This document shows positions 2,340 to 41,616 of a stretch of DNA of 64,000 nucleotides, one piece after another. This stretch comes from an uncultured Verrucomicrobiota bacterium (lineage in GTDB: Bacteria; Verrucomicrobiota; Verrucomicrobiia; Limisphaerales; CAZVRY01). Both the position numbers and the translations under genes were made by a program. Location: positions 27,305-91,304 of the forward strand of contig CAZVRY010000001.1 of NCBI GenBank assembly GCA_964629545.1. Direction: 5' to 3'. Position 1 is the stretch's first letter; each line of letters begins with the position of its first letter. Below the pieces are notes generated by a model. The model was given only the letters and a program-made list of their open reading frames with translations, made no database searches and was not told the DNA's origin.

Positions 2340-3731
2340 TCAGAGCGGAAGAACAATTCGGAACAAGCTGCCCTTGCCACATTCGCTTTCCAACTGCATG
2401 CGCCCACCGTGGCGTTCGACGGCGAGCCTGGCGATGGCCAACCCCAGCCCCGCCCCGCCCTCGGCGCGCGACCGGGACTTGTCCACGCGATAAAACCGCT
2501 CGAAGACTTTTGCGTGATGCTCCGGCGCAATGCCCTCGCCGGTGTCGGCGATTTCGATGACCGCTTCGCGGTCGCGTCCCAAACAGCGGACGGTAATTCG
2601 CCCGCCGTCCGGCGTGTAGCAGATGGCGTTGTGGACCAGGTTGAGCAGGGCGTGCCGGAGAAGCGCCGCGTCACCGGCGATGCACACTTCGCCATCCGTC
2701 TCGGCGGCCAGCCGCTGCTGTTTCTCGTTGGCCAGAATGCGCAGGCTCTCGACGACTTCCCGCGTGAGCGCGCCCAGATCAACCGGCCCGCGATTCAATG
2801 GCTGCTGGTCCGCCTCCGCGCGGGCCAGTGCCAGTAGCGAGTCCACGAGATCCTGCAGGCGCTGTGCTTCCTCCAGCATCGCGCCGATGCTCTGCCGGAA
2901 CTGCTCTGGCTCGCGCGCGTTGTTGAGTGCCACTTCGCCTTCTGCCCGCAGCGCGGTCAGAGGAGTGCGGAGTTCGTGCGAGGCGTCGGCGGCGAAGCGT
3001 CGGAGTTCAGCGAACGAGTTTTGCAGCCGCTGCAAGGTGGCGTTGAAGACAGTGGCCAGTCGGCCTAGTTCGTCGTGAGGATTGGCCACGGGCAACCGTT
3101 GCGAAAGCGAACTGGCGGAAATCTCCTTGGCTCGGCCCGCCATGGCGGCCAAGGGGGCGAGCGAGCGCCGCGCCACGAACCAGCCTCCCGCCACGGCGAG
3201 CAGCATCGCCAGCAGCAGCCCGAACAGAAACACGTCCGCCAGTTCGTGCTGCGTGCGACGCAGCCCGGACTGATCACGCAGGATGCGCAAAATCACGTCG
3301 CGATGCTCGACTCGTCCGGGTCGTTCCATGATGCGGGCGAACAAGCCCGGCTCGACTTCGGCGGAGTAGAAGTGCAACTGCTGTCCGGCCGGCGGGCCAA
3401 GCCGCGCGTGAGCTTCCGTCTCAGGAACGGGCCAGTGCCGGAGCAACAGCTTGGCGTCCTCGCTCCACACTTCAAACCACGCGGCCATGCGCGCGTAGCC
3501 TTCTTGGCCGTGCGAACCACGCAAGGGCCACACCATTTTGCTTTGCGACTCCTCGACCTGCGCTTCAATGATGTCGAAATCAATCCGAAGCTGGCGATCG
3601 AGTTCCTGCAACAACCGCTGCGAGACGGTTTGCCGGACGAACAAGGCAAGCGCGACCACGACGACCAATGCGGTCGCCGCGTGCCAGCACGCGAGGCGGA
3701 AGGTCAGCGATTGGCGGCGCAGCCAGTTCAT
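2340..3731 (-). CDS. Sensor histidine kinase, heavy-metal (CusS-like) type
   Basis: 463 aa with two hydrophobic segments. H-box 'ADASHELRTPLT', N-box 'LLNLVHNAICYT', G-boxes 'DTGEGI' and 'GAGLGLAIA'. Its ATG (3731) overlaps the stop of the upstream response regulator (ATGA). Confidence 0.85.
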   Translation of the reverse strand: MNWLRRQSLTFRLACWHAATALVVVVALALFVRQTVSQRLLQELDRQLRIDFDIIEAQVEESQSKMVWPLRGSHGQEGYARMAAWFEVWSEDAKLLLRHWPVPETEAHARLGPPAGQQLHFYSAEVEPGLFARIMERPGRVEHRDVILRILRDQSGLRRTQHELADVFLFGLLLAMLLAVAGGWFVARRSLAPLAAMAGRAKEISASSLSQRLPVANPHDELGRLATVFNATLQRLQNSFAELRRFAADASHELRTPLTALRAEGEVALNNAREPEQFRQSIGAMLEEAQRLQDLVDSLLALARAEADQQPLNRGPVDLGALTREVVESLRILANEKQQRLAAETDGEVCIAGDAALLRHALLNLVHNAICYTPDGGRITVRCLGRDREAVIEIADTGEGIAPEHHAKVFERFYRVDKSRSRAEGGAGLGLAIARLAVERHGGRMQLESECGKGSLFRIVLPL

Positions 3732-4417
3732 GCCTGCGCCTCCGTGCGCAACACGAAGCCGACACCACGCACCGTGTGCAGCAGTTTGGTGTGGTGTTCC
3801 TCGTCAATCTTCCGCCGCAGATGTGCGATGTGGACATCGATCACGTTGTCCAACGGCGTGATCCGGTGCGGCTCCCGCCACACGTCCTTCGCGAGCATCC
3901 GCCGGGTGACCGTCTGCCCCTGATGCCGCATGAGGTAAGCGAGCAGGTCGAACTCGCGAGGTGTGAGCAGGACTTCCTTTCCGCCTCTCATGGCGCGGCG
4001 GTTTTCAACATCGAGGGCCAGATCGCCAAGCTGCCGTCGCAAACTCTCGGTATCACCCGCGCGCCGCAAGAGCACGCGGATGCGCGCCAGCAATTCGGCG
4101 AAGGCGAATGGCTTGACGAGGTAATCATCCGCCCCGCAGTCGAGCCCGCGCACGCGATCTTCGATGGCGTCGCGGGCGGTGAGCAGCACGATCGGAGTCC
4201 TCGATCTCCTGGCGCGCAGCGATTTCAGAATCTCGATGCCGTCGCGAACGGGAAGCATCCAATCGAGCAGCACGAGGTCGAAGCTTGAGGAATGGAGGAG
4301 CAGCACGCCGTCTTCGCCGGTCCTCGCCACGGCAGCGTCGTAACCTTTGCCGCACAGACCCGCACGGACGGCGTTGGCCGTCTTGATGTCGTCTTCGATG
4401 ATCAGAATCCGCGCCAC
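3728..4417 (-). CDS. OmpR-family response regulator (CusR-like)
   Basis: Receiver domain 'ARILIIEDD...DLVLLDWMLP...LLTARD...GADDYLVKPF' plus a winged-helix output 'LTPREFDLLAYLMRHQGQTVTRRMLAKDVW...IDVHIAHLRRKI'. The track start at 4462 is a TTG. The GTG at 4417 (VARILIIEDD) gives a typical 229-aa protein, so the start is uncertain by 15 codons. Confidence 0.85.
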   Translation of the reverse strand: MARILIIEDDIKTANAVRAGLCGKGYDAAVARTGEDGVLLLHSSSFDLVLLDWMLPVRDGIEILKSLRARRSRTPIVLLTARDAIEDRVRGLDCGADDYLVKPFAFAELLARIRVLLRRAGDTESLRRQLGDLALDVENRRAMRGGKEVLLTPREFDLLAYLMRHQGQTVTRRMLAKDVWREPHRITPLDNVIDVHIAHLRRKIDEEHHTKLLHTVRGVGFVLRTEAQA

Positions 4418-4491
4418 TGGCAGGGATGATTGCGTTTGCGATCGCTTCCGGCGAGCCCACAATTCTGAGGTTTGGTTGCACGGTTTCTTTC

Positions 4492-4928: not shown

Positions 4929-5345
4929 AAGGGAGAAGTCACCATATTCAGCCTGGAACTCCCGCCCTACCGTCCGCCCCAGCTTTGGCGAACGCTTTAC
5001 ACTTCGCTGATTGACCGGACCTACTTCGTCCTCTGGCGGACGGTCTTGTTCGCGCTCTCGGCAGGAGCCGTGATTTGGCTCACCGCCAGTATCCACATTG
5101 GGGACGGCAGCCTGGCCACCCATTTCATCCGCATGTCCAGTCCGTGGGCTCTGCTCTTCGGCCTCAACGGCGTCATCCTCCTGGCCTACATCATCGCCAT
5201 CCCGGCCAATGAGATCATTGTCCCGACGATTCTGATGCTGACGGTGATGGCGACGGGCACGCAGGGCGTAGGCGAGGGTGCGGGAGTCATGTTCGAGCTC
5301 GATTCCGACAATGCGATCCGACAGTTGCTCACCGCGGGCGGGTTC
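4929..5345 (+). pseudogene. feoB: Fragment of a ferrous-iron transporter FeoB (C-terminal membrane region), fused in frame to the GT fragment
   Basis: 'SLELPPYRPPQLWRTL...' is the FeoB (M/L)ELPPYR.P motif, and 'LFGLNGVILLAYIIAIPANEIIVPTILMLTVMATG' matches the FeoB gate-motif region. There is no G-domain, and the enclosing ORF (4821..5561) has no ATG (it begins with a TTG). That ORF is therefore a chimera of two unrelated fragments. Confidence 0.55.
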
Positions 5346-5557
5346 CTGGCCGAGACGATCGGCAAGCTCCCCTGGCCGCCGCGACGCGCGATCGATTGGC
5401 TGGACATCCGCCGTTCTGTGCCGCGTCACGTTAGACCACGGCACGGGAGCGGGCGCGACTCGCCCGCTGCGGAGCGGAGGGAGAGTTGCCATCCTCCGTG
5501 GTTGGGTCCTGATCGGGTTGCGTTCGGGTGGCCTGATGGCGATCCTCCACGGCAACC

Positions 5558-8500
5558 ATGAACCACGACTCCGAGCAGCAGGCGACCGGCGAGCAGGAAT
5601 TGTGGCGCCGACGCTCGGAGATCGAGCGAGGCCTGGCCCGGGCAGGTCGGGCGGCCTTGGTCGCGTCGCTCGTCGTCATGGCTTTGGCCTGCGCCGCGCT
5701 CTGGCAGGCGCACCAGGCACGTCGGAGCGCCGCGGCTGAGCTGAGCGCGAAGCTCGCCGCGGAACGAGCCCGGCTCGAGAAGGAAGATCAGCTCTGGAAG
5801 TCCCGGCTCCTGGAGGCCAGGTCCTTTCGCATCAGCGGCCGCCCGGGCCAGCAGGCCCGAACCCTCGAGGTGCTGCGGGAGGCAACCGCCCAGAAACCTT
5901 CCGCCAACCTGCGCAACGAAGCCATCGCGGCCTTGCTCCTCCCCGATATTGGGCGTGAACTCCACTTCCACGCCAAGCTCCTCGACCATGGCCCCATGGC
6001 CGTCGATCCCACCGGCGAGTTCTTCCTTGGTGAGCCCGGTCGGCCGGAGGTTGAGGTGGGCCGATGGTCGGATGGTCGGGCGGAGATCAGCTTGCCCGGA
6101 TTCGGGCCGGTCAAGACCTGGATGCGGTTCAGCCCCGATGGACGCTATGTCGCCGCGCAGATGGGGCAACCCTCCGGCGTGCTCGCCGTATGGGAATGGC
6201 GCACTTCGCGGCTGGTCCTCCAAGCCCGGACCACCGGCGCTTATTGGAACCGGTCCACCTTCGAGTTCTCGCCCGACAGCCGCCTCGTTTTCGCGGTTTC
6301 CGCGGAAGGTCCTCTTCGCCAGTTCGACTTGGAACATGGCCGCGAGCTGGCGCCCTTGGCCACGAACGCTCCCGCCGCATTGCTCACGGTCAGCCGCGAT
6401 GGCCGGCTCGTAGGGGTGGCGAAGGGCCGGGAGGCGCGCATCTTTGATCGCAGCCAAAGCCGCTGGCGCGACCCGATCCGGCTGCCGGACGAGATTCTGA
6501 CTATGGCCATCCATCCGAACGGCGATCGGTTGGCGTTCGGCTGCTACAACGTCGGGGCCCTGGTCTGGGATGCTGATTCGCCCCAGCCCGTCGCAATGTC
6601 TCACCAGGTGTCCACGGTCACCCGAGTGTTCTTCAACCGCGACGGTGACCTGCTGGTGGCTTCTGGGTGGGGAGATGGGACGACGTTTTGGGACATGAGC
6701 ACCTTCAGCCCGCTGCTCACCACCCACGAAGGATTCGCTCTGGAGTTTGCCGCGGAGGGACGCCGGCTCGCCTTCGCTCGAGAACGCGTCGGCTTCGGCC
6801 TTTGGGAATTCCTCCCTGCGGCCGGGCTGCGTCGGTTCTTGTTCCCCTCCAGGCTTGGAAACCAGGCGGATTGCGCCGACCTCAATCCGGCCGGCACGCG
6901 GCTCCTCTCAGGTCATGCCCAGGGTTGGGCACTTTGGAACCTCGAGGCGGGTGGCTTGATGACGGCGCACTCCGCCGGACGGGTCAGCAGCATCGCGTTC
7001 GACGGGGGTGATCGCACGTTCCTGACTGGCGGCGCGAATGGGCTGGAGCGCTGGACGCCGAGTCAGGACGAGGCCGGGAGTCCATCCGGTTACAGCGCTG
7101 CGGTCCTGTTCCCGGAGCGCACGACCCAGGCCGAACGGTTCGCCCTCTCGGCGGATCGCCGAACGCTTGCGGCGGTCGGTCCCGGAGGCGCCTTCGCCGC
7201 CCGACTGGACGGTGAAACCCGCGACCTCACTCTGCAAACCGACGGACCGCACCGCACCTTCGTCGCGGTAACCCCGGACGGACTGACGGCCTTTGCCACC
7301 ACCTACAACAGGCCCAACATCGATGTTCTGGAGACGCGTTCCGGCCGGCGGACGCGACTCATCGAGACGCCGGGCTGGACGGTGCTGCCGTGTCCGGATG
7401 CGCCCTTGGCCCTGGTTTCCGACCCGAAGGGTCATGTCTTCCTGAATCTCCACGATGGGCAACCCGGTCCCTGGCCTGCGTTGGGTTCAGCCGCGTCCAC
7501 CGGTTTGGACCCGGTGGGATTCTCGCCCGACGGCCGCATCCTCTTCCTCATCGATCGGACCGGTCGCTTGCACTTGCGCGATGTCCGGCGCGGAGCGGAC
7601 GTGGCCATCCTGGAGCATCCATCAGGAACCACCGGGTGGTCCCTTCGTTTTGACGCCAGAGGCCAGCGTGCCGCCCTCAACTCGACCCGTGACGTCGTGC
7701 TGGTGCTGGATTTCGGGGCCCTTCGCGAGGGGTTGGCTCAGCTCGGGCTCGAATGGTCGGACGCGGATCCGGGAGGCGGTTTCGTGCCTGCTCGGAGTCG
7801 CGTGGGCAGCCAGCACGAGACGAACGAGCGCGAGTTCCGATCCGGGTCGTCGGCCGGTTCCCCGGGCCTGACCACGGGGATCATCCTTGGGGGCATGCTG
7901 CTGGCCATCGGCGTCGGCCTTTACATGTTCCGGGCACAACGCTCGCTCTTCCTGGCCTACGGCGAGCTCGACCGGTTGGCCGAGGCGCGTGCAGCCGAAC
8001 TGATCCGCACCCAATCCGCCCTGCTGCACAGTGAGAAAATGAAGGCTTTGGGCACGCTTTCAGCCGGCGTCGCCCACGAGTTCAACAACTTGCTCTCGGT
8101 CATTCGGCTCTCCAACGAGCTGATCGAGGAACAGGTGCGCCCCACCGGCCTCACCCGAGAGAACGTGAACGCCATCCAGCAAGCCGTCCAACGCGGACGG
8201 GGCATCGTCAACTCGATGCTCGGTTACGCGCGCGACGACGGCGAGCCGCGCCGGTTTTCGGCCGCAGAGCTCCTGAGTGAGACCGTCGCGCTCCTCGGCA
8301 AGTCCTTTCTGCGGGGGCTGGTGTTGCAGGTCGAGGTGCACCCGGACACTCCGGCCGTCTTCGCGCGCAAGGGCCGGGTGGAACAAATGTACCTGAACCT
8401 GATCGTCAACGCGGCCGAGGCGATGGAAGGTCGCGGAACGCTGGCCTTGCGGGCCCGGCCGGCTCGTGAGCCAGGCCATTGCCTGTTGCCGCCGGCGCCT

Positions 8501-8797
8501 GCGCTCGGTTTTATCGAACTGGTCGTGCAAGACAGCGGCCCGGGCATTCCACCCGAAATCCTGCCGCACATTTTCGAGCCGTTCTTCACGACCAAGAATC
8601 AGGGCTCCCAGCGCGGCACCGGGCTCGGCTTGTCCATGCTCTACGCGATGGCCCGCGACGACGGCATCGGTGTGGGCGTGGTCACCCAACCCGGCCGGGG
8701 CGCCCTCTTCCGGCTCCTCCTGGCCCAGGCACCCGCCGATTCGGCAAACGCAGCGGAAAACCCCGGGCGTGACTTGCCCGTCGCTTCCATCCCTTGA
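5558..8797 (+). CDS. Sensor histidine kinase with a large extracytoplasmic coiled-coil + WD40-like beta-propeller sensor domain
   Basis: 1079 aa. TM1 is 'AALVASLVVMALACAALW'. The ~700-aa ectodomain carries repeated 'FSPDGR...' WD40-like blades. TM2 is 'GIILGGMLLAIGVGLYMF'. H-box 'LSAGVAHEFNNLLSVI', N-box 'LNLIVNAAEAM', G-boxes 'DSGPGI' and 'GTGLGLSM'. The ectodomain is colinear with that of the Ser/Thr kinase at 47964..51281. Confidence 0.85.
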   Translation: MNHDSEQQATGEQELWRRRSEIERGLARAGRAALVASLVVMALACAALWQAHQARRSAAAELSAKLAAERARLEKEDQLWKSRLLEARSFRISGRPGQQARTLEVLREATAQKPSANLRNEAIAALLLPDIGRELHFHAKLLDHGPMAVDPTGEFFLGEPGRPEVEVGRWSDGRAEISLPGFGPVKTWMRFSPDGRYVAAQMGQPSGVLAVWEWRTSRLVLQARTTGAYWNRSTFEFSPDSRLVFAVSAEGPLRQFDLEHGRELAPLATNAPAALLTVSRDGRLVGVAKGREARIFDRSQSRWRDPIRLPDEILTMAIHPNGDRLAFGCYNVGALVWDADSPQPVAMSHQVSTVTRVFFNRDGDLLVASGWGDGTTFWDMSTFSPLLTTHEGFALEFAAEGRRLAFARERVGFGLWEFLPAAGLRRFLFPSRLGNQADCADLNPAGTRLLSGHAQGWALWNLEAGGLMTAHSAGRVSSIAFDGGDRTFLTGGANGLERWTPSQDEAGSPSGYSAAVLFPERTTQAERFALSADRRTLAAVGPGGAFAARLDGETRDLTLQTDGPHRTFVAVTPDGLTAFATTYNRPNIDVLETRSGRRTRLIETPGWTVLPCPDAPLALVSDPKGHVFLNLHDGQPGPWPALGSAASTGLDPVGFSPDGRILFLIDRTGRLHLRDVRRGADVAILEHPSGTTGWSLRFDARGQRAALNSTRDVVLVLDFGALREGLAQLGLEWSDADPGGGFVPARSRVGSQHETNEREFRSGSSAGSPGLTTGIILGGMLLAIGVGLYMFRAQRSLFLAYGELDRLAEARAAELIRTQSALLHSEKMKALGTLSAGVAHEFNNLLSVIRLSNELIEEQVRPTGLTRENVNAIQQAVQRGRGIVNSMLGYARDDGEPRRFSAAELLSETVALLGKSFLRGLVLQVEVHPDTPAVFARKGRVEQMYLNLIVNAAEAMEGRGTLALRARPAREPGHCLLPPAPALGFIELVVQDSGPGIPPEILPHIFEPFFTTKNQGSQRGTGLGLSMLYAMARDDGIGVGVVTQPGRGALFRLLLAQAPADSANAAENPGRDLPVASIP
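8761..8783. repeat. 23-bp direct repeat, copy 1 (ccccgggcgTgacttgcccgtcg)
   Basis: It matches 9830-9852 with one mismatch. This copy lies in the last codons of the kinase gene, 35 bp upstream of the response-regulator ATG. Confidence 0.8.
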
Positions 8798-8817
8798 ATC
8801 CTCCAACGTTGACTCTC

Positions 8818-9459
8818 ATGGCTGACCTCCCCACCGCAGCTATTCTGATCGTCGAGGATGAACCGGCCCAACTGCGCCTCTACACTCAAGCGTTGGCCGG
8901 CTACCGGCTGACCTGTGTGAGTACCGCCACCGCCGCGCTCGAACTCATCGCCCAGCAAACGCCCGACCTCATCCTGCTCGACCACGTCCTCGCCCAGGGC
9001 GAACTCGGTCTGGAAGCCCTGCCCCGACTCAAAGCCGCTGCCGCCCACGTGCCGGTCATTGTCATTTCGGGCACGCTCGGCGTGACCGATCAACTCCGCG
9101 CCCTCTCCGGTCCCGACTCGGCCCACTACGTCCTGGAGAAACCGGTCGGCCTGGCCGACCTGCGCGCGACCGTGCAACGCGCCCTGGACGAATGCGGTTT
9201 CGGCGAGATGGTCCGCAGCCTCCAGTCGCTCGAGCGCGCCGAACTCATCAACACCGGAGAACGGGAGCGCATCTACACCGAACGCCTGGCTCGTCAGCAT
9301 GATCTCCTCAAACGCCTGCGTCGCACGACGGAGAAGCCGAATCTCACCCAACTCGCGACCGATTACCGCGTCGATCGCCGGACCATCCGCCGCGATCTTC
9401 ACGATCTGGTCCAGCGCGGCCAACTGCCGGCCCTGGTGATCGAAGGCGAGCCGGAGTGA
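8818..9459 (+). CDS. Response regulator: receiver domain plus C-terminal helix-turn-helix (DeoR/HTH_11-like) segment
   Basis: Receiver 'AILIVEDEP...DLILLDHVL...VIVISG'. C-terminal 'NLTQLATDYRVDRRTIRRDLHDLVQRGQLP'. The track start at 8794 is a TTG overlapping the kinase stop. The ATG at 8818 (MADLPTAAILIVEDE) is preferred. Confidence 0.8.
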   Translation: MADLPTAAILIVEDEPAQLRLYTQALAGYRLTCVSTATAALELIAQQTPDLILLDHVLAQGELGLEALPRLKAAAAHVPVIVISGTLGVTDQLRALSGPDSAHYVLEKPVGLADLRATVQRALDECGFGEMVRSLQSLERAELINTGERERIYTERLARQHDLLKRLRRTTEKPNLTQLATDYRVDRRTIRRDLHDLVQRGQLPALVIEGEPE

Positions 9460-9506
9460 TTGGCACAGCCGTTCCGAGGGTTCTCTTGCTGGTTTCCGCA
9501 CGGGTC

Positions 9507-9533
9507 CCGGCGAGTTGAACTCGCCGGTTTCCT
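9507..9533 (+). terminator. Candidate intrinsic terminator after the kinase/regulator pair
   Basis: ccggcgagt-tga-actcgccgg forms a 9-bp perfect stem with a 3-nt loop, followed by tttcct. The T-tract is short, so confidence is modest. Confidence 0.35.
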
Positions 9534-9829
9534 CGACCGGACCACGCGGGCCGCCTTTGGACCGCGACCGGTCCCCGGTCGCAGCGCCCAGGCCCGCCGG
9601 ACGGGACCAGAACTTCCCCCGCGCCAGTCTCGATGGCCCGCGCGCTGCGCGCCGGGACCTCGCGCGGTCCGAGTTTGAGGGCATACCCCTCCAAAACGGC
9701 CTCCCTGGTGCCGTTCGATCGAAAGGTGCCCCGATAGGGTCGTCAGGCTCGACATGCCACCCAAAGTGGCAAGGAAGACAAAATGAGAACTGCTGCTCTG
9801 ACCGCTGAAAGACGGGCGCCACTCGCCCG

Positions 9830-9852
9830 CCCCCGGGCGCGACTTGCCCGTC
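9830..9852. repeat. 23-bp direct repeat, copy 2 (ccccgggcgCgacttgcccgtcg)
   Basis: It matches 8761-8783 with one mismatch. This copy lies 67 bp upstream of the ATG of cassette-A gene 1. Confidence 0.8.
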
Positions 9853-9918
9853 GGGGGGCGCCGCGACTGGAGTTAGGAATCTCGCATCGGCAGCGAACCG
9901 CAACCTCCAGACCACGGC

Positions 9919-12900
9919 ATGATGCAACGCGAGAAATCGACGAAATGGTGTCGGACCCTGGCCCTGGCGATCGGCCTGGGCTTGACCGGGGAGACCCAGG
10001 CCGGCGGCGGCCTGAATGGTGACTTTACCACCGTCAGCTACCTGAACCCCGGCTCCGAAGAATTCCTCTACTTCACCCCCGCCGATCCCACCCGGCTCCA
10101 GGTGAAGGCCAACGTCAGCACGGTGTTCACCGTCACCACCCCCGGCGCCATCGGCCAATACCGTCATGTGGTGCGAATGCTCGATACGTCCGGTCAGCAG
10201 GTGATGATCCGGACCGAGGACGGCACCTCCACACCCCAACTGGCCTTGCCGGCCTTCACGGTGAGTGCCGCGGGGACGCCCACGCGGCCGCTGGCCTTGA
10301 CCCTGGCCGACGCACCGCTGCCTGGCGCGACCCGGTTGAACCCTTACACCAGCTATCGGATCGAGGTGACGCTGCAATACTTCTCGGCCGGCGCGTGGGT
10401 CAACGAAGGTCCGCTTGGCCACTCGCCTGGCCGCCGCTTCTTTCATTTCCCCAACCGGGTCAGCGGGGATCCTGCTCGGAATGTCATCACGGAAATTATT
10501 TCAGCCCGCTGGATTCGCACCTACGGCATCGACACCTCGGTCGAGACGGAGCGCGGCCTGGAGGCGGAGGTGAGCTACCTGGTGTTTCGTTACGACGACT
10601 TTGAATCGCCCCCGGCGCTGGCCGACGTGCCGATGAGTTTAACGGTCGGCGTGCGGGCCGGCAGTTCGGGCATCGTCACCCCCACGGAAACGGAGGACGT
10701 GCCCTTCGCCGTGCCGACGACGAGCTATCGGATGGCCGGCGGGCCGGCGCCATGGCGCAGCGCCCTCTTCACCCGGCGAATCCGGTTTGGCCCGAACGCG
10801 CCCCTGCCATCCGCCACGGAAAGCGCCTTCTGGGCGGCGATCACCCTCTTGCACCAGGAAGACTCGACCTCACCCTGGACCTCCGGCAACCCCAAGGACA
10901 CCGACGCTGCCCCGGTCCTGCATTTCAACGGTCGCCTGGCCTGGGGCAACGTGATCACCACGATCACCGACATCGCCAACGACCCGACAGCCTCGTTCAC
11001 GCGGGAACCGGGAGCCGTGATCATGACGCTCAAGCTGAGCGGATTGGCGATTCCGGAAGCTTCGATTCCGTCGGTGCCGGTGGATGCGGAAGTGCGGGTG
11101 AGCCTCGCCGATTCCGGCGATGCGCAGGTGCTGGACGGCCATGCCTCGCTCGTGCTGCCCCCGACGGTGCGCGAGCGCCACGGTCTTCGTTATCGCCTGG
11201 GCAATCCGGTCCAATTGGGGCCGGAGGGCGCCGAGGCGGACGTGACTCTGCTCCTGCCGGCGGGCATGGGCGTGGGAAGGCCTGGGGAAGCGCTGCGCGC
11301 GACGCTGACGGCGCGTCTGCGGTCTTTCAACGTGCGGCTGGAACCGACGGGCACGAACGACTTCCCGCTGGCCCTGACAGACCAGGTCGTGCTCGACACG
11401 CGCCCGCTCTACTTCCAGGCCCCCAGCTTGAGCTGGAGAGTCGAGGTGGGCGATTTGGTTTTTGTGCCATCGGCGGTCGATTACGTCCGGCGCGAAGCTT
11501 TGGCCACCCTGGCCACGTTCACGGACCTCCCGCTGGAACAGGTCATCAAACCCTCCAACGAGCGCTACTACGAATTCGTGTCGGGCCTGGCCGGGACCGC
11601 CGTGGTCCGGATCACTCCGGAAGGTCGCACCGGTCTAACCGCGCGGATGGCCATCGCGGCGGGCCAGTTCATTCCTCACTTCCCGCTCGGGGTCACGACG
11701 GCTTGGACCTCTGGCGATCTGATCCTCACCGACGATCTGCCGGCGATCCCGACCAGCGGTCTGTTTCCGGCCGGCGCGATGATGGTGGAGTATGAGCAAG
11801 GCTGTCCCGACGGCCCTTGCGCGGGACAAACGGCGGGGCTCGAGTTCGAGACGGCGAAGCTGTTCTTCACCCCTGACAGCGGCCTGGTCGCCGACGGGTC
11901 GGCGCCGGGGGCTTCTGGCAACAGCCTGGCCTGGGGGCACAACCCCGGTCGCAACGTGTTCGCGCACGGGGTGGGCCCGTTTTACCAAGCCGGCTATGCC
12001 ATGGCGGGGCACGTTCTGTTGGGAGGGGCGATTCCCACCGCCGAGATCGCGCAAGGCCCGACAGCCCTTTTGCAGGCGGGGGCGGTGTTCAATGGCGTGG
12101 GCGGAGAAACGACGATCCGCATGATTCGCCCGGGCAGCGCTGCTTACGCGCGCGGTTTGGGGCATTACCCGGGCCTGAATCTGCGGCGCGCGGTGGAAGC
12201 GGACCCGGCCGGCGTGCGGGGGCGTGCCCGCTTGGGGGATGCGGCCGCGCCAGCGGAGTTTGAAACCTCAGCGCGCGTGCAATACTACGCGCGGCGTTCG
12301 GGCGTGAGCGGGCTGCACGAGGCGGCGGAGGGCGGATTTCCTCCGGGAGCGCTCCAAATCTACGGATATCCGTTCGAGTTCGCGTCGTTCGCCCTGAGTT
12401 TCCTTTCGAATCAGAACGAGGATTCGGCCACGCGCTGCCGGGTTCGGGTGCCGTTCCCGGTGGATGAGACGCTGCACCTGGACGAGCTGACGTTCACCTG
12501 CGTCGGGGCGCCGCGGGGCGCAGGGATTGCGGCTGGGCGGGACGCGTTACGCTTCGTCTACTGGCTGGCCGAGGTGGACGCGCGTGGAGTCGAGTTCGCG
12601 CCGCAGAACCCGGCGGACGCTACCTGCGACGCGGCCGAGAAGCGCTTCCTGGGCCTGGGCTCGGTGGTGCACGTCTCCGGGGTCCAGACCACCCTCGCCG
12701 GCACCCTCTACCTGTCGCCGTTCGGTTTCATCATCACGCCGGCAGACGCGGAACGCCCGGCCGGCCGGTCGCTCTATTTGGGGGCTGGGGCCGTGGTGAC
12801 GGTGGCGGGGGCAATGGATGCGGCCAGCCCTCCAGTTCCGACCGAGTTCTACTCGATGGTGCTGGCGAAGGCCTACTTCAACGACTCCAGGGCGGATAGC

Positions 12901-15333
12901 GGTGTGGGCTGGCTGAACCTGTTTGGCCACGTGCGCCTGCCGTTCTACGGTTCGACGGCAGCACATCTGACGGCGGGAGCGACAAAGAACCTGGCGGATC
13001 CATACTACTTCAACGGCGGCTGGAGCGAAGGCGGGTTGGCGGCTGCGGATCCGGCGGGGGATCCAGCCCACCGCGGTAAACCGGGCGGGGGCATGACTTG
13101 GCGCGACTATCGCGAAGGAATCGATTACCCGGTCGAGGCGCGCGGCGAGTTCCTTGACGTCATTAACCTGAGCTTCCCGCTGCTCTGGCATGCTGCGTTG
13201 CGCGAGTTCAGCGGCGCGGATCCCATCGCCAGCAGCATCCTGGTTGTCCATACCCAACGCGAGTTGCACCGGTTGTCCGCCGAGGACATTCAAATCCAGT
13301 TCGGTGCCGAGAAGAATCTCCCTCGCCTCCTGCCGACCCTGCGGACGATCGGGTTGGTGGACACGAGCGGGGGTGTGGCGAGCCTTGGGGCGAAGATTGC
13401 CGAGGCCTTGGCCGAACCTGCGTTGGCGGATTTTGAGCAAGGGCTCGCGTCGTTGCGCACGGTAGCCGGCGAGCAATTGCAGACGCAATGGCGGCAGATG
13501 GCCGGCCAGATGGTGGCTCGCATCGCCCCCGAGCTGCGCAACGCCCTCCGGGCCGCCTGCCCGGAGGGTGGAAGTTGCGACGAAGCGGCGCTGGCGGCGA
13601 CGGCTCGCGCGATGACCGACCGGTTGCGCCTGGACGAACGGACGCTGTTGCTGGGCGAAGAGGTGCTCGAACTGGGGCTGCGTCCGCAATTGACTCGCAA
13701 TCTCACCCAAGCGGCCGAAACGCTGGAATACTTGTTCGACGAGGAACACGGGGTCTTCAGCGGCGGCGTGGGCGGTGGCAGCCTGCGCTCGGCCAAGGTC
13801 ATCCGGGCGCTGCTCGTCGCCGCCTTCGAGGATGACGTGGAGCCCTGGATCATCGAGCTGATCGGAGCGATGGGCCACCCGCTCCTCGACCAGATCCTGG
13901 CTCCCCTCCAAGGAGATCTCAGCCGCATGGCTTCGGTCCTGGCCCGCCTGGCGCAGCGTGCCCGCCAGATCCGGGATCGTTACGCGTCCGACGATGGGGA
14001 CCTCTACCTCGAGTTGCGCGCTCTCTTCGGCGATCCCCTGGTGGTGGCCGAACTCAACGGCATCCTCGAGCGACTGGCCTCTGATCTCGCCGAGCGAGCG
14101 GCCCGGCCGCGCTGGGTCAGCGAGCACGTCGGAGAAGCCGGGGACGAACTCGAGCGTCAGCTCTCGGCCGACCTAGCCAACCTGCTGGTCACCTCGGACT
14201 TCTTCCGCCGTCTCGATCGGATCTTGAGTTACCACTTGCGCGGCTTTGAGGAAGCCGCCGTGGCTGGCCTGGGGGACGGACTGGGCCTGGTTCAGCGCAT
14301 GATCCGGACGGCGGCCCGCGAGCTCCTCCGGCTGGGCGATGAGATTGCCTCCAACATCCTGTCGGAGCCGTGGCAGAAGCGCCTGATCTTTGCCAAGGCC
14401 GAGGGTTACGCCTGGTTCAGCGGCGACGAGGTGCGCAAGCTCCGGATCACGGGCGAAGGCGGCGTGGATTTCGGGGAGGAATACAAGTTCAAGACGGGCG
14501 TGAAATTCGAAGTGAGCGCACTGGATTCCGAAGGCGAGGTGTCTTGCGGCACGGGCGGAGCCGTTAAGGCGACCGAGTGTCTGCTGGAATTCTCCGTGGC
14601 CACCAGCGCCAGCGCCGAGGTGGCGGCTCCGTTCGATCCACGTTACGACAATATCCTGACGCACCCTGAACCGGAGGTCCAGACCACCTCCGAGTCTTTC
14701 GCCGTCTACCTGAAGGCCAGCCTGGACGGGAGCGACACCATTAGCGGCTTCGGCGGAGGGTTCAACTGGCCGGCCAACCGCAAGTTCGGCTCCGTGCTCG
14801 TCAAGCGGGTGGCCGGCGCGGCCATGTTTGGCGCCGCCGAGAACTACCTCGCCGGCGCCTTGGAGGCGCACTTCGGCGACGAGGGCGGAGTGGATCTCCA
14901 GGGTGGTTTGTTCCTGGGCCGAACGTGTTCTCGCACCCCGCTCGTCGCCATCAGCCCGCGGGTCGGCCGCTTGCTCGGCCCTGGCGAGCGACCCTTCACG
15001 GGATTCTACGTCTACGGCGAAGGCTGGGTGCCGGTGCTTTCGGCCTCCTGCCTGCTCAATGTCTCGCTCGGCGCAGGGGTGGGTGTTCTGGCCGACTTCG
15101 AATCCAGCCGCTACGGCGGGACGATCCTCGGCGGAGTGAAGGGCCGGGTCCTCTGCGTAATGTCCGCCCAGGGCGAGCTCGAACTGAGCGGCGTGGGGAG
15201 CGAGGAGGGACTCGTGCTGGACGGCGCCCTCCGCTGCCGGCTCGAACTCGGCGCCTGCCCCTTTTGCGTGGCCTTCTCGAAGGAATTCGGACTGACCTAC
15301 CGATCCGCACCCGACACTTGGGAGACGCGCTGA
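9919..15333 (+). CDS. Giant cassette protein 1, copy A (1804 aa, secreted, no family recognised)
   Basis: Signal peptide 'KWCRTLALAIGLGLTGETQAGGG'. It is colinear along its whole length with 41617..47049 (-). Example: 'DPTRLQVKANV...QYRHVVRMLD' versus 'DPTRLQVKVEV...QYRHVVRLLD'; 'LGACPFCVAFSKEFGLTYR' versus 'LGSCPFCVGLTKGFHFTYR'. Its stop overlaps the next start (TGATG). Confidence 0.85.
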   Translation: MMQREKSTKWCRTLALAIGLGLTGETQAGGGLNGDFTTVSYLNPGSEEFLYFTPADPTRLQVKANVSTVFTVTTPGAIGQYRHVVRMLDTSGQQVMIRTEDGTSTPQLALPAFTVSAAGTPTRPLALTLADAPLPGATRLNPYTSYRIEVTLQYFSAGAWVNEGPLGHSPGRRFFHFPNRVSGDPARNVITEIISARWIRTYGIDTSVETERGLEAEVSYLVFRYDDFESPPALADVPMSLTVGVRAGSSGIVTPTETEDVPFAVPTTSYRMAGGPAPWRSALFTRRIRFGPNAPLPSATESAFWAAITLLHQEDSTSPWTSGNPKDTDAAPVLHFNGRLAWGNVITTITDIANDPTASFTREPGAVIMTLKLSGLAIPEASIPSVPVDAEVRVSLADSGDAQVLDGHASLVLPPTVRERHGLRYRLGNPVQLGPEGAEADVTLLLPAGMGVGRPGEALRATLTARLRSFNVRLEPTGTNDFPLALTDQVVLDTRPLYFQAPSLSWRVEVGDLVFVPSAVDYVRREALATLATFTDLPLEQVIKPSNERYYEFVSGLAGTAVVRITPEGRTGLTARMAIAAGQFIPHFPLGVTTAWTSGDLILTDDLPAIPTSGLFPAGAMMVEYEQGCPDGPCAGQTAGLEFETAKLFFTPDSGLVADGSAPGASGNSLAWGHNPGRNVFAHGVGPFYQAGYAMAGHVLLGGAIPTAEIAQGPTALLQAGAVFNGVGGETTIRMIRPGSAAYARGLGHYPGLNLRRAVEADPAGVRGRARLGDAAAPAEFETSARVQYYARRSGVSGLHEAAEGGFPPGALQIYGYPFEFASFALSFLSNQNEDSATRCRVRVPFPVDETLHLDELTFTCVGAPRGAGIAAGRDALRFVYWLAEVDARGVEFAPQNPADATCDAAEKRFLGLGSVVHVSGVQTTLAGTLYLSPFGFIITPADAERPAGRSLYLGAGAVVTVAGAMDAASPPVPTEFYSMVLAKAYFNDSRADSGVGWLNLFGHVRLPFYGSTAAHLTAGATKNLADPYYFNGGWSEGGLAAADPAGDPAHRGKPGGGMTWRDYREGIDYPVEARGEFLDVINLSFPLLWHAALREFSGADPIASSILVVHTQRELHRLSAEDIQIQFGAEKNLPRLLPTLRTIGLVDTSGGVASLGAKIAEALAEPALADFEQGLASLRTVAGEQLQTQWRQMAGQMVARIAPELRNALRAACPEGGSCDEAALAATARAMTDRLRLDERTLLLGEEVLELGLRPQLTRNLTQAAETLEYLFDEEHGVFSGGVGGGSLRSAKVIRALLVAAFEDDVEPWIIELIGAMGHPLLDQILAPLQGDLSRMASVLARLAQRARQIRDRYASDDGDLYLELRALFGDPLVVAELNGILERLASDLAERAARPRWVSEHVGEAGDELERQLSADLANLLVTSDFFRRLDRILSYHLRGFEEAAVAGLGDGLGLVQRMIRTAARELLRLGDEIASNILSEPWQKRLIFAKAEGYAWFSGDEVRKLRITGEGGVDFGEEYKFKTGVKFEVSALDSEGEVSCGTGGAVKATECLLEFSVATSASAEVAAPFDPRYDNILTHPEPEVQTTSESFAVYLKASLDGSDTISGFGGGFNWPANRKFGSVLVKRVAGAAMFGAAENYLAGALEAHFGDEGGVDLQGGLFLGRTCSRTPLVAISPRVGRLLGPGERPFTGFYVYGEGWVPVLSASCLLNVSLGAGVGVLADFESSRYGGTILGGVKGRVLCVMSAQGELELSGVGSEEGLVLDGALRCRLELGACPFCVAFSKEFGLTYRSAPDTWETR

Positions 15334-18300
15334 TGAACACCCTGCCCATGAACCGACCGTTCGGAAATTCAAAGCTCAAAGTTCAAAGCTCAAGGCGTCG
15401 TCCCCGTCCCTCGTCCTCGTCCTCGAGCCCCGGTTTATGGTCCCGATGCGCGTTCACTCGAACGTGGAAAGCCAACGGTTGGCTGCCCATCCTGGCCCTG
15501 CTCGGCGTTCTCTTTGTCTCCAGCTTCGAGCCTGCGCTGCACGCCCAAACGGCTACTACCGCCGGCACCTCGCTTCGCAGCGCCGACGGTCGCACCTGGG
15601 CTTACCTGACCTGGAACTCGGATCAACCCGAGTTCCTGCAACGCGCCGTCATCGCCGTCTTTCGCAAGGACGGAACGGCCGACACGGCCGGCGATTACCG
15701 GTTGGTCTCCGTTTTGAAGCGCGATCCTGAGACCGCCGTCATCCGGGCCGCGCTGCAACGGGCGCAACAGATCGGCGAGAACCTGGTCATGGTGGGCGAC
15801 TTGGTCCAAAGCGCCTTCGCCGAGTTGGTCCCGGCTCCCACCCTCCCGCTCGAAGAGAAACTCCAGGTCATCTTCGCCACCGCCCAAGCCCGGCCGGATA
15901 CCGATCGCTTGCTCCAATTCCTAACCCGTACCCAACCGGCCTTCGCCCTCGCCGCCGGCCAGGCTTTTGCCAGTGAAATCCCGTCCGGCGCCCCCACGAC
16001 TTTCGAGTTGCGCGTGTGCGACCGCATCCCCGCCGAGGCCGGTCTCGAATGCACGACGGTCATGGGGCGTGTCACCGTCACCGGCGGCTCCTTCGCGCCG
16101 TTGCCGGCGCCGGGGATTCCCACCGACGTGAGTTGGCGCGGGCCGCGTGGCGATTTGAATGTGCGCCTGCTCTGGGCCACGCCCGATCCGCTGCGCGCCG
16201 AGGTCATGCTCCAGAGCGGCTTCCAGGTTTATCGAGTGACCCCAGCCCATTACGCGGCCCACTTCGCCGCCCGCGCGCCCGAGCCCGGTGAACTGGCGCG
16301 CTTAAGCCAAACCGAACCGACCGCCGTCGGCCTGGTCAACCTGCAACCGGTGTATCCGAATGAACGATTCAACGACACCGAAGTGCAGGCCTTCCGCCTC
16401 CGCCGGCAAGCCGAGGACGGCACCACCGATCATCCGGATCTGAACCCGATTCCCTTTTTCACCGTGGATGACAACCACCGGTTCGAACCGGGCGGACGTC
16501 CCTTCCAGGACGGCGACTCATTCTACTACTACGTGGTGGCGCGCGATTTCCTCGGCCGCGAGGGCCTGCCTTCCCTCCCTGCCCTCATCACGATCTGCGG
16601 GCGACGCGCCCCGGTCATTCCCAAGGAGGTCACCGTCGAAATCGCCTCGCTCTTCAATCCCGCCGCGCCGGGCCCGGAGAAGCGCGACCAATTCTTCAAC
16701 GTCCGATGGGCGCGCAACCCCACGAACCAAGAAGCCGTGCCGACCGATGCCTACTGGGTTTACCGTTGGAATTCGCCGGAGGAAGTGGTGACGCCGCCCG
16801 TCGCCGGCGCCCCGCCGAAGCTGCCGTTCAAGACAATTTCCGCCGGCGATCGGCGCAACTTGTTCTATGAAGCGGCCGATGATGGCGCGGGACGTCCCCT
16901 GCTGCCGGATGCCGATCAGAAGACCTATTGGTACACCGTTCGGGCGGTCCGCCACGCGCCGTGCAACGACGATCTTGTCTCCGGCCATAGCCCACCCGTG
17001 CCCGGCGTGTTGCGCGGATGGGAAGGACCGGGGCGGGCCGATGGCGAACTCACCGTGCTTTGCCACGAGCCGCGGGCGGAATTTGTGTCGTGGACTCCGC
17101 AAACCGTCGCCGTCCCGCCGCCGGGCATCCACGAACTCGAACTGGTTTGCCACCGCGAGGCCGGCGACCGTTCCACGGTTTGGGCGGAGTATTATCTCGC
17201 CACCCAGGACCAACCCGACCCGACCGGCGCCGGGTTGGGCGGCGATCGCTACCTCGGCCGCGTCTGGTTCGAGCGGGAGTCGCTAACGGCGACGCTCATG
17301 GCCCGGATTCCCCGCACGGTGGCGACTTCCGTCCGCATTCGGTGTCGGGTGGGCAGCGATCAGGGCACGGTTTCGCCCCCGGCCGACGGCGTGCTCACGC
17401 CGCTCGATGGCAAGTGGCCCAAGGCGCAAGTCGTGTTTCGCAGCGTGCCCGTTCCCGCCGTGCGCGCCGTGCTCGGCACCTGCGGCAGCGGACGTCACCT
17501 CACGCGCCATCCCGAAACTGGCCGGCTTGAACCGATCGGCGTGACCGTGCGTTACACCGACACCACCCGCGAACACCGCATCTATTTGTCGATCGACAAC
17601 GGACCCCTGGAGTTGGTGGCGCGCGGATCAGGGCCTCACTCGGCCGTCATCCAGGAGACGATCGAGAGCATCCCCGGCAATGCCGCCACTTTGTGTTTCT
17701 ATGTCCAGAACCTCGACAGTCAGGGACTGGCCGGGCCGATGACGTTCCTGGGTTGCGTGATAGCGGAGGGGCAACAGGAAATGCCGGTGCCCCTTTTGGC
17801 CCAACCGACGCCCGCCACCACTCCCGACGGCCGGTTCACCGTGGCTTCGCTGAAGTGGTTTTGTCCGCCGTTCGCGGTGGAGCGATTTCGCGTCCTGGTT
17901 CACACCGAAGATCCCGCCCTGTTGCCCGCCCGGCTCTCGACCGGGCTTTACGAGTCGCCCTCGACGCGCCTCGAACGTGTCGGGGGTAAGACGTATCGCG
18001 TTTACGAGACCGGCCGGGTGGGCGGGAACTTCGGGACGGCCGGCGACCCGAACTTCACCCTCGCGATCGAAGTCCAGCCGTCGACGAAATACGAGTTCCT
18101 GGTCCAGGCAGCCAGCAGACCGGACGACTTTGGGAACGTGGAACTCGGTGGGTTCAGCCGACCGGCTGAATTTCAGTGGTCGCTGCCAATCGCGGCGGGC
18201 GATGACGCGGTGGTCTGGCCGGCGCGCGGGTTGGATTTGGCCCAAACGTATGTTGCGGGGAGCCCGGTCCCCACCGTCCGGCCGCCTCCGGGCGATGCGC

Positions 18301-18809
18301 TCTACACCCCGGCGGCGTGGACCGATCCTGGTTCCAGCCAACTGCACCTCGGCGTGCTGATCGGCACCACGCCCGGCACACCGTTGACCGATCCCCAGAG
18401 CGGGGCCGCCACGCTGGAAGGCGTGGTCGATCCACGCGACATCGTCGGCCTGGTGGAGGAAGCCGATCCTACGCTGCGGGCGCCCGTGCTGCCTTGCGTG
18501 CTCTATCGGTACCAGATCGTCAACGAGGCCTTTCCCCAGGTTTCTGGCGATGTGATCCAGGTTTCGCCGCTCCTGCGCGCCATCGCGCATCGCTTGGTGA
18601 CGACTCCGGACGTGCAACGAACGGCCCTGGTGGATCCGTTCATCGATGTCCGGGCGGACCTGGGCGCCAGCGGCGCCGTGGTTCGGCTTTATCTCAAGGA
18701 CACTCAACCCGCGGTGCAAGGCGCGACCTACCGCTACGTGCTCGTCCGGTTCACGGACTTGGGCGAAATCGCCGGAATCACGCACACGTCGCCCGTCACC
18801 ATTCCCTGA
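15333..18809 (+). CDS. Giant cassette protein 2, copy A (1158 aa, N-terminal membrane anchor, Fn3-like beta modules; no family recognised)
   Basis: I trimmed track ORF 14925..18809 to the ATG at 15333 (TGATG overlap with gene 1), which gives the same length as paralogue 38142..41606 (1154 aa). It has an Arg/Pro/Ser-rich tail and then the hydrophobic helix 'WLPILALLGVLFVSSF'. It contains blocks nearly identical to the paralogue (PGIPTDVSWRGPRGDLNVRLLWATPD; LKWFCPPFAVERFRVL; SGDVIQVSPL.RAIAHR). Confidence 0.85.
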   Translation: MNTLPMNRPFGNSKLKVQSSRRRPRPSSSSSSPGLWSRCAFTRTWKANGWLPILALLGVLFVSSFEPALHAQTATTAGTSLRSADGRTWAYLTWNSDQPEFLQRAVIAVFRKDGTADTAGDYRLVSVLKRDPETAVIRAALQRAQQIGENLVMVGDLVQSAFAELVPAPTLPLEEKLQVIFATAQARPDTDRLLQFLTRTQPAFALAAGQAFASEIPSGAPTTFELRVCDRIPAEAGLECTTVMGRVTVTGGSFAPLPAPGIPTDVSWRGPRGDLNVRLLWATPDPLRAEVMLQSGFQVYRVTPAHYAAHFAARAPEPGELARLSQTEPTAVGLVNLQPVYPNERFNDTEVQAFRLRRQAEDGTTDHPDLNPIPFFTVDDNHRFEPGGRPFQDGDSFYYYVVARDFLGREGLPSLPALITICGRRAPVIPKEVTVEIASLFNPAAPGPEKRDQFFNVRWARNPTNQEAVPTDAYWVYRWNSPEEVVTPPVAGAPPKLPFKTISAGDRRNLFYEAADDGAGRPLLPDADQKTYWYTVRAVRHAPCNDDLVSGHSPPVPGVLRGWEGPGRADGELTVLCHEPRAEFVSWTPQTVAVPPPGIHELELVCHREAGDRSTVWAEYYLATQDQPDPTGAGLGGDRYLGRVWFERESLTATLMARIPRTVATSVRIRCRVGSDQGTVSPPADGVLTPLDGKWPKAQVVFRSVPVPAVRAVLGTCGSGRHLTRHPETGRLEPIGVTVRYTDTTREHRIYLSIDNGPLELVARGSGPHSAVIQETIESIPGNAATLCFYVQNLDSQGLAGPMTFLGCVIAEGQQEMPVPLLAQPTPATTPDGRFTVASLKWFCPPFAVERFRVLVHTEDPALLPARLSTGLYESPSTRLERVGGKTYRVYETGRVGGNFGTAGDPNFTLAIEVQPSTKYEFLVQAASRPDDFGNVELGGFSRPAEFQWSLPIAAGDDAVVWPARGLDLAQTYVAGSPVPTVRPPPGDALYTPAAWTDPGSSQLHLGVLIGTTPGTPLTDPQSGAATLEGVVDPRDIVGLVEEADPTLRAPVLPCVLYRYQIVNEAFPQVSGDVIQVSPLLRAIAHRLVTTPDVQRTALVDPFIDVRADLGASGAVVRLYLKDTQPAVQGATYRYVLVRFTDLGEIAGITHTSPVTIP
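15369..15425 (+). repeat. Composite microsatellite: (tcaaagY)x4 heptamer tract followed by (cgtccY)-type hexamer run, inside codons 13-31 of cassette-A gene 2
   Basis: Read directly: tcaaagc tcaaagt tcaaagc tcaagg | cgtcgt ccccgt ccctcg tcctcg tcctcg. It encodes SKLKVQSSRRRPRPSSSSSS. There is no counterpart in the paralogue. Confidence 0.85.
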
Positions 18810-18819
18810 GGGCCAACCT

Positions 18820-27871: not shown

Positions 27872-27892
27872 TTCCCATAGCCTCTTGCCCTG

Positions 27893-41606: not shown

Positions 41607-41616
41607 GGGGCGGAAA

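Follow-up and report, generated by a model that had tools for sequence, protein, structure and literature searches.

A 64,000-nucleotide (nt) stretch of DNA from an uncultured soil or sludge bacterium of the Verrucomicrobiota (GCA_964629545.1, contig CAZVRY010000001.1, positions 27,305-91,304 of the forward strand; hereafter the window, to which coordinates refer unless another locus is named) encodes two receptor kinases with unrelated transmitters that carry the same kind of sensor, a periplasmic module of ~690 amino acids (aa) predicted to fold as a double WD40-type β-propeller. One receptor is a sensor histidine kinase (HK), which is followed by a response regulator (RR) and then by a cassette of three giant genes (cassette A). 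The other is a Hanks-type serine/threonine kinase (STK), which is preceded by a divergent sigma factor and stands beside a paralogous cassette (cassette B). We hold it about 65% probable that these shared-module receptors control the cassettes next to them, the RR switching cassette A through a palindromic box and the STK driving cassette B through its sigma factor, and that the ligands of the two receptors may differ. The features on which this reading is built are collected in Table 1.

A double-propeller module shared by two kinases

A preliminary description of this DNA had proposed that the ectodomains of the HK (5558-8797) and the STK (47964-51281) are colinear homologues and that the HK works with the adjoining RR (8818-9459). 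The three reading frames lie where it placed them, and the pairwise alignment that it called for bears out the homology: HK residues 60-756 and STK residues 369-1091 join in a single colinear BLASTP alignment with 233 identities in 743 positions (31%, E=2e-73), and all four block pairs that had been singled out, including RVGFGLWEF/KTGFGVWEF, fall inside it. Together with the gene map and the paralogy of the cassettes, this alignment upholds the further statement that one sensor module is mounted on two types of transmitter, each receptor being encoded directly upstream of one cassette copy, divergently in the case of cassette B.

The architecture of the HK had been read as a transmembrane segment (TM), a coiled coil, a WD40 region, a second TM and a HisKA/HATPase core. 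The order of these elements stands, with TM layouts here and below inferred from hydrophobic segments; the supposed coiled coil is modelled instead as a three-helix stalk. HK residues 60-760 were modelled with AlphaFold2 from an alignment of 53 sequences (pLDDT 90, pTM 0.90). Three helices stand at the N-terminus of the model, followed by about 52 strands and a helix that closes the module, and the ~700-aa “WD40 ectodomain” of the earlier account is, according to this model, a stalk plus a double WD40-type propeller. The two propellers with their four-stranded blades are those of a tandem WD40 protein, and the top 50 Foldseek matches in the PDB are all tandem WD40 proteins (e.g., 2ymu, Utp21, Pwp2 and EML-like; E 1e-29 to 1e-23). 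By sequence the WD40 assignment is borderline: PF00400 reaches 30.7 bits (cutoff 27), though none of the repeats would pass by itself, and both ectodomains collect sub-threshold WD40 or β-propeller matches in Pfam, many of them in the HK. Neither kinase has a Reg_prop or Y_Y_Y match in Pfam at E<=0.01. The C-terminal helix of the module ends with the signature LGLEW..PGGGF in the HK and with LGL(D/E)W..PGxGF more generally.

On their cytoplasmic sides the two receptors are orthodox members of their respective classes. The HK has the features of a class-I enzyme, with a HisKA domain (PF00512, 38.8 bits, cutoff 26.9) bearing the H-box AGVAHEFNNLL, a HATPase_c domain (PF02518, 60.4 bits, cutoff 26.4) bearing NLIVNAAEAM, DSGPGI, FEPFFTTK and GTGLGLS, and, 20 nt downstream, an adjoining cognate RR with its phosphoacceptor Asp. 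The STK has those of a Hanks-type kinase, with PF00069 at 152 bits (cutoff 31.7), the Lys of VAIK, and the motifs HRDLKPSN, DFG and SPE. Catalytic motifs are intact in HK, STK and RR alike. Ahead of its kinase domain, at residues ~10-30 (47991-48053), the STK also carries a zinc-ribbon-like motif, CPRC..(14)..CPRC.

The module belongs to a large family. A search with the HK ectodomain (E<=1e-3) returned at least 708 proteins; among the best 120, about 75 have the layout kinase-TM-ectodomain, 11-12 the layout TM-ectodomain-TM-HK, and the remainder consist of a TM and the ectodomain, alone or with tetratricopeptide repeats (TPRs). The suggested search for fusions of this ectodomain to either kinase type has thus found both. 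Taxon labels of the few named matches and of the related contigs point to Verrucomicrobia and Pedosphaerales. STKs with periplasmic WD40 arrays have already been described in the Planctomycetes-Verrucomicrobia-Chlamydiae (PVC) bacteria (PMC11032199), and a literature search found no paper on periplasmic WD40 histidine kinases.

Exchange of the module between kinases

The boundaries of the module are marked by a pair of proteins on opposite sides of the divide, the HK P0014 and the STK P0015 (compared proteins are labelled P0011-P0019 and compared loci L001-L024). These are 64% identical over 676 aa (64-66% for the P0014 ectodomain against an STK), and the matching span is exactly the ectodomain, beginning just past the first TM and stopping at PGxGF. 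The best match of the P0014 ectodomain among other HK ectodomains reaches 34%, and the P0014 core is 68% identical to that of the window HK. This shows the ectodomain to be a discrete and, by all appearances, swappable unit that begins and ends alike in an HK and an STK.

A second line of evidence comes from seven HK orthologues, in which the DHp and CA core is 65-74% identical and the RR 84-87%, with propeller identities of either 18-30% or 47-64% depending on the pair. Three ectodomain lineages can be told apart, {window, L015}, {L002} and {L016, L019, L023}. The alignments therefore show orthologous kinases, near-constant in core and RR, to carry three seemingly unrelated lineages of ectodomain. 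L016 and L002 share a neighbouring gene and downstream synteny, yet their ectodomains are 31% identical and their propellers 21-27%; conversely, L019 and L023 have different neighbours and ectodomains 61% identical. Coevolution of the ectodomain with a neighbouring target gene was considered and is ruled out by these identities, since common synteny goes with low propeller identity in the L016/L002 pair.

Could the ectodomains simply have evolved fast in place, without replacement of modules? Between the window and L015 the ratio of nonsynonymous to synonymous substitution rates (dN/dS) is 0.23 in the ectodomain, about twice the 0.12 of the core and RR, and an unbootstrapped neighbor-joining tree of ectodomains has long terminal branches. 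A value of 0.23 is nevertheless purifying and far from runaway; positive selection on the ectodomain was rejected on this ground, and, the selection being purifying, slow steady drift does not explain the discordance between ectodomain and core. Moreover, propeller identity is bimodal at constant core and RR identity, the syntenic L016 and L002 differ in their propellers, and the P0014 ectodomain stands far closer to an STK than to any HK. Fast evolution in place is, in our judgment, decidedly improbable.

The turnover of modules also bears on what the two receptors may sense. The preliminary description had supposed that both answer the same class of cue, such that two paralogous cassettes would respond to one signal through two signaling logics. 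A common fold, colinear homology and the position of both receptors beside paralogous cassettes speak for it. However, the 31-34% identity between the HK and STK ectodomains of the window is about the background for any two family members, and neither has the other as its closest relative: the HK ectodomain shares 33% with several foreign STKs, as much as with its nearest foreign HK, and is no farther from those STKs than from the window STK, and the STK ectodomain has its nearest relatives in P0018, P0016 and P0019 (44-47%). Propellers are exchanged independently of the adjoining target gene, and the differences between the window HK and its close relative are concentrated in the second propeller. 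Because of this degree of divergence and the turnover of the module, a shared class of cue, which finds no support here, has become less likely, and we regard it as improbable.

A conserved HK-RR operon and its palindromic box

The RR pairs a receiver domain (Response_reg, PF00072, 59.9 bits) with a C-terminal helix-turn-helix (HTH) of HTH_11/DeoR type at residues 159-212 (PF08279, 27.0 bits, cutoff 25); in its model, REC and a long helix are followed by an HTH-like C-terminus, with helices at 148-167, 176-182 and 187-199. D55, T86 and K108 are invariant in 43 homologues. This architecture had been called uncommon, a view that does not hold within the lineage: the same domain pair occurs in many homologues, and the RR family comprises more than 120 sequence clusters 64-100% identical to the RR, all of ~213 aa. 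The RR follows a double-propeller HK in every locus examined (the window, the P0011 contig, L002, L015-L017, L019-22 and L023/24), and the HK and the REC-HTH_11 regulator are thus shown to form a conserved, presumptive operon. In L023 (6809-9973) and L024 (990-4154) two proteins take the place of the orthologous HK, one of 592 aa with the propellers and one of 454 aa with TM, HisKA and HATPase; as the split is present in two independent assemblies, it may be genuine and not an error of sequencing.

Comparison of upstream regions exposed a 15-nt palindrome, GGGCG-YNACT-YGCCC. With at most one mismatch, the window contains four matches against 0.26 expected, all on the plus strand, a count reached by none of 100 shuffles. 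Single copies precede the HK and the RR, a tandem pair precedes cassette A (Table 1), and the relatives repeat this arrangement. One box precedes the HK in each of L015, L016, L002, L019-22 and L023/24. One precedes the RR of the same relatives at 55-60 nt, except in L002, where it lies at 95 nt and has one mismatch. Before the next gene on the same strand there is a tandem pair in L002, L019-22 and L023/24 and a single copy in L015 and L016, and L023/24 have a further copy before an FG-GAP giant gene. The close relative L015 keeps the HK-RR pair, the box and cassette A, retaining one of the two tandem boxes before the cassette despite an insertion of ~900 bp. The extra DNA (L015 9458-10365, between RR and cassette) contains two minus-strand reading frames of 126 and 142 aa without a Pfam match.

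In the ~446 kb of sequence scanned in total, all copies with an exact core lie in HK-RR loci, on the gene strand and at conserved positions; none was found in the sigma-STK loci, the foreign cassette loci or L017/18, whose RR is 69% identical. The copy ahead of the RR also encodes the C-terminal tail of the HK, GRDLPVA, which for this reason seems dictated by the DNA element; the same tail (window 8765-8785) reads GRDKPVA in L002. A reading of the box as a sigma-54 promoter was checked by hand and rejected, as its GG-to-GC spacing does not fit the -24/-12 consensus. We favour the box as a putative operator for a dimeric regulator. Its layout is the signature of what would be an autoregulated two-component system with an output element before the adjacent giant secreted-protein gene.

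A different reading takes the box as an RNA element, a hairpin in the 5′ leader with a YNACU loop, doubled ahead of its targets and bound by an RNA-binding factor that might be the RR itself in an ANTAR-like antitermination scheme. Every copy indeed lies on the transcribed strand, and the five central nucleotides are asymmetric and strand-fixed, with an invariant ACT, which counts against an operator. C/T variation preserves G-C or G-U pairing on the plus strand, and some flank changes are compensatory; 85% of the pair-count cells are paired, a modest excess over shuffles, and the covariation score was reached by 15 of 500 shuffles. The tandem hairpins of L019 fold with z = -2.6, and among the fold matches of the RR model a EutV (ANTAR)-RNA complex ranks third. 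Against this, most folding z-scores are near -1 or 0, the window copies pair with each other, and a core stem that never varies is uninformative on RNA versus DNA. An Rfam scan of 5200-10000 gave no match. The EutV match is driven by REC and the long helix, and the RR has no ANTAR match (PF03861) in Pfam at E<=0.01, its C-terminus scoring as HTH_11/DeoR. We leave the RNA element a small but appreciable chance.

The sigma-STK pair

The STK starts 65 nt past the stop codon of the sigma gene, and the pairing recurs in six loci (the window, L003, L009, L013, L014 and L019), which show sigma and STK to be a second conserved two-gene module. The sigmas are of ~250 aa; their identity to the window protein is 38-53% in the four loci compared; the L019 sigma runs off the end of its locus. 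The sigmas share an N-terminal FPTTxWS extension, and a C-terminal HTH-like stretch is conserved in five homologues. In L019 (1-10627) the sigma-STK(WD40) pair lies just 3.5 kb upstream of the HK-RR operon, both module types being neighbors there.

The pairing of the kinase with an ECF (extracytoplasmic function) sigma had been part of the preliminary description. The adjoining pair is there; the label ECF fits loosely, for the sigma matches Sigma70_r2 at 32.9 bits (cutoff 24), has no region-4 match in Pfam, and reaches 39.0 bits with the NCBIfam ECF model TIGR02937, under its cutoff of 42.9. In ECF43, the hallmark is the loss of the acidic DAED of σ2.2 in favor of S/T, and the phosphorylation switch rests on that hallmark (PMC8999054, PMC13147305). 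The window pair shares with ECF43 a co-encoded Hanks-type kinase and the lack of an anti-sigma factor. It differs in that DAED is kept and not replaced by QTTA/STTA, in the FPTTxWS extension and in the subthreshold score; homologous sigmas read DAKD or DAQD, and AAAD in L009 only. These sigmas do fit the more loosely defined ECFs that go with an STK and have no anti-sigma factor (PMC7826278). The STK-associated groups include ECF43, ECF59-62, ECF217 and ECF283; the genomic hallmark of the PVC groups ECF59-62 and ECF217, an adjacent STK, is present in the window.

Proposed regulatory wiring of the cassettes

How might the two modules act on their neighbors? In the arrangement that we favor, the propellers would bind a periplasmic or outer-membrane ligand, probably a macromolecule, and the two sets appear diverged enough to need no common ligand. 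Phosphorylated RR would then bind the box as a dimer, autoregulating the HK-RR operon and switching on cassette A, which is co-directional and begins 459 bp after the RR. On the other side, the STK would phosphorylate or otherwise activate the adjoining sigma factor, and the activated sigma would drive the divergent promoter of cassette B across 106 bp. The proposed link between the HK-RR pair and cassette A has thus gained independent evidence from a cis-element: a box common to the upstream regions of HK, RR and cassette A supports control of the cassette by the RR better than any other evidence at hand. For cassette B, we infer control by the sigma-STK pair from adjacency, one recurrence and precedent.

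Several observations weigh against this wiring, and many of them also fit adjacency without control, in which the HK-RR and sigma-STK pairs would be general modules with regulons elsewhere and the cassettes would have landed beside them by rearrangement or duplication. The gene next downstream of the HK-RR pair is the cassette in the window and L015, but orthologous pairs (RR 84-87%) adjoin quite different genes: DUF7452 in L019-22, a DUF5122/GEVED giant gene in L016 and L002, and, in L023/24, a gene for a 387-aa protein followed by one for an FG-GAP protein of 2796 aa. The closest relatives of the sigma-STK pair, L013 and L014, have unrelated neighbors and no cassette. Among the other cassette homologues with sufficient sequence upstream, L001 has a GAF-HK and a REC-LuxR regulator ahead of the cassette, L008 a GAF-HK and an NtrC-type regulator, and L005/6 no regulator. 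Synteny between the window and L015 breaks just upstream of the HK, at ~5273. With DAED kept, the ECF43 phosphorylation mechanism is not simply transferable to the window sigma. A search for a shared promoter motif on the sigma side (upstream regions of sigma and cassette in the window, L003, L009, L013 and L014) returned chance-level 8-9-mers only, and neither sigma-70 nor terminator scans were informative for the two intergenic regions. Three runs labelled RNA (X2, X4 and X23) have a depth of ~8 that is even over genes and spacers and the same as that of the DNA run X1; for this organism these nominally transcriptomic runs behave like metagenomic DNA. The ectodomain tree, finally, lacks support values.

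Adjacency without control nonetheless leaves much unaccounted for. The tandem boxes stand 84-105 nt before the first gene of cassette A in the manner of those of the operon itself, and one copy is kept in L015. In each HK-RR locus with a box, a copy stands ahead of whichever gene comes next on the same strand. In L009 a sigma-STK(WD40) pair is again found directly upstream, on the same strand, of a cassette homologue 26% identical. We consider adjacency without control unlikely, and control of the adjoining cassettes the better account. As for the linkage that the preliminary description had expected in related genomes, the retention of HK-RR with the cassette in L015 and of sigma-STK with the cassette in L009 agrees with it, and the other genes beside most relatives do not. 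Judged by gene order, regulators and cassette are truly linked in this lineage, and the association reappears once in a distant locus; it does not extend to the family as a whole, and neither candidate regulator is specific to the cassette elsewhere.

The cassettes and their surroundings

Cassettes A and B are paralogous, with 50% identity over 1799 aa for gene 1, 62% for gene 2 and 47-55% for gene 3. The products are of ~1800, ~1154 and ~2400 aa, and those of genes 1 and 2 begin with N-terminal hydrophobic, signal-like segments. None of the six proteins has a Pfam match or a meaningful sequence match in the PDB. Several Verrucomicrobia contigs (L001, L004-L012, and also L015) keep the three genes in the same order, at 25-30% identity. 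In the homologous loci with sufficient sequence upstream, the cassette is usually preceded by what looks like a dedicated signaling pair of varying type.

Table 1. Coordinates of the two receptor modules, the box copies and the cassettes in the window
Feature	Position	Strand	Basis or remark
Box GGGCGCGACTCGCCC	5451-5465	+	107 nt before HK start; position kept in L015, L016, L002, L019, L023
Sensor HK, 1079 aa	5558-8797	+	Short cytoplasmic N-terminus, TM1, periplasmic module, TM2, HisKA, HATPase_c
HK TM1, residues ~32-49, preceded by an Arg-rich cytoplasmic segment	5651-5704	+	Sequence and hydrophobicity scan
HK periplasmic module, residues 60-756	5735-7825	+	BLASTP, AlphaFold2, Foldseek
HK TM2, residues ~769-790	7862-7927	+	Sequence and hydrophobicity scan
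HK catalytic core, HisKA (residues 831-894) and HATPase_c (residues 940-1055)	8048-8722	+	Pfam; H, N, G1, F and G2 boxes
Box GGGCGTGACTTGCCC in the 3′ end of HK, 53 nt before RR start	8765-8779	+	Encodes the HK tail GRDLPVA
RR, 213 aa from ATG 8818; REC, long helical linker, HTH_11-type HTH	8818-9459	+	Pfam, model
Tandem boxes 9814-9828 and 9835-9849, 21 nt apart	9814-9849	+	Gene 1 of cassette A starts 105 and 84 nt further on
Cassette A, three giant genes (9919-15333; ~15333-18809; ~18800-25794)	9919-25794	+	No Pfam or PDB sequence match
Cassette B, paralogous genes (41617-47049; 38142-41606; 30883-38145)	30883-47049	-	Paralogy to cassette A
Spacer of 106 bp separating the divergent cassette B gene 1 and sigma gene, no box	47050-47155		Box scan
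Divergent ECF-like sigma, 247 aa, N-terminal FPTTxWS extension, σ2.2 DAED kept	47156-47899	+	Pfam, alignment
Hanks-type STK, 1105 aa; CxxC..CxxC N-terminus, kinase 48132-48881, TM ~48987-49058, module 49068-51236	47964-51281	+	Pfam, BLASTP, hydrophobicity

Four further stretches of the window deserve mention. Upstream of the HK, at 2340-4462 on the minus strand, lies an unrelated two-component pair, a 463-aa HK-like and a 244-aa RR-like protein, which in tblastn match the HK core and the RR weakly. Just past cassette A and on the opposite strand (26335-26988, minus), a reading frame of 217 aa encodes a Sigma70_r2 protein unrelated in sequence to the sigma at 47156. Between the cassettes (26894-29200, plus), where GC content drops to 59%, are a radical SAM/DUF3641 protein and a fusion of DUF2064 with glycosyltransferase 2. 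At 38000-38078, near the N-terminus of cassette B gene 3, contigs from several public runs have different short sequences; the spot is either strain-variable or prone to assembly error.

Relation to known systems and significance

The reuse of one sensor fold on different outputs has well-known parallels. Cache, CHASE and PAS domains occur across histidine kinases, cyclases, chemoreceptors and STKs. Here the shared unit, ~690 aa with two propellers and constant limits, has recently been exchanged between HK and STK (64%) within one lineage and replaced on an otherwise conserved orthologous HK. The hybrid two-component systems of Bacteroides (e.g., BT4663) offer a second parallel, in that a periplasmic double β-propeller sensor lies between the two TMs of an HK that controls an adjoining locus for large envelope proteins. 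The window HK lacks Reg_prop and Y_Y_Y matches and has WD40-type propellers, and the fused REC-AraC output of Bacteroides is represented in the window by a separate REC-HTH_11 protein.

STK-WD40 receptors and sigma-STK pairs are already known. The membrane STKs of Planctomycetota and other PVC bacteria with periplasmic WD40 or TPR arrays have the same cytoplasmic kinase, single TM and C-terminal WD40 region predicted to be periplasmic, and their lineage-specific expansion involves duplication and recombination, as here (PMC11032199). That work covers STKs only; in the present case the module is also found between the two TMs of an HK, and its exchange is documented. In the PknS/EcfK pair of X. 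citri and the PknT/EcfP pair of V. parahaemolyticus, a transmembrane STK directly phosphorylates the adjacent ECF sigma (PMC13147305, PMC8999054), and PknS/EcfK adjoins a type VI secretion system (PMC13147305, PMC8999054, PMC7826278). Like the window pair, these combine an adjoining sigma with a transmembrane STK that has a periplasmic repeat domain, without an anti-sigma factor, and PknS/EcfK is likewise placed beside a large envelope or secretion gene cluster. The periplasmic repeats are TPRs there and a tandem WD40 propeller in the window STK, and the candidate target in the window is an uncharacterized three-gene cassette. The combination of a double-propeller HK, a REC-HTH_11 RR and the box, as well as the exchange of an ectodomain from HK to STK, appear undescribed.

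If these readings hold, a two-component system made of a double-propeller HK, a REC-HTH_11 RR and the GGGCG-YNACT-YGCCC box is widespread, and so far unannotated, in Verrucomicrobia. A portable sensor unit with known boundaries on both HK and STK offers a ready-made comparison of how two unrelated transmitters receive a periplasmic signal, and the double-propeller module could serve as a template for chimeric receptors. For a giant cassette without recognizable domains, the candidate regulators and candidate operator may open a route to the conditions under which it is produced. More speculatively, a Pedosphaerales-like lineage may perhaps keep recombining a repertoire of ~690-aa double propellers, interchangeable on one HK-RR chassis with its box regulon and on many sigma-STK pairs, each switching different giant surface or secreted loci, with sensor replacement reflecting selection for changing recognition. 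We offer this idea tentatively. Were it true, the recognized targets might be, for example, prey, predators, phage or polymers, and the system would be a bacterial analogue of diversifying receptor-kinase families. If the turnover of ectodomains does mean changing ligand specificity, it would bear on how surface sensing diversifies in environmental PVC bacteria.

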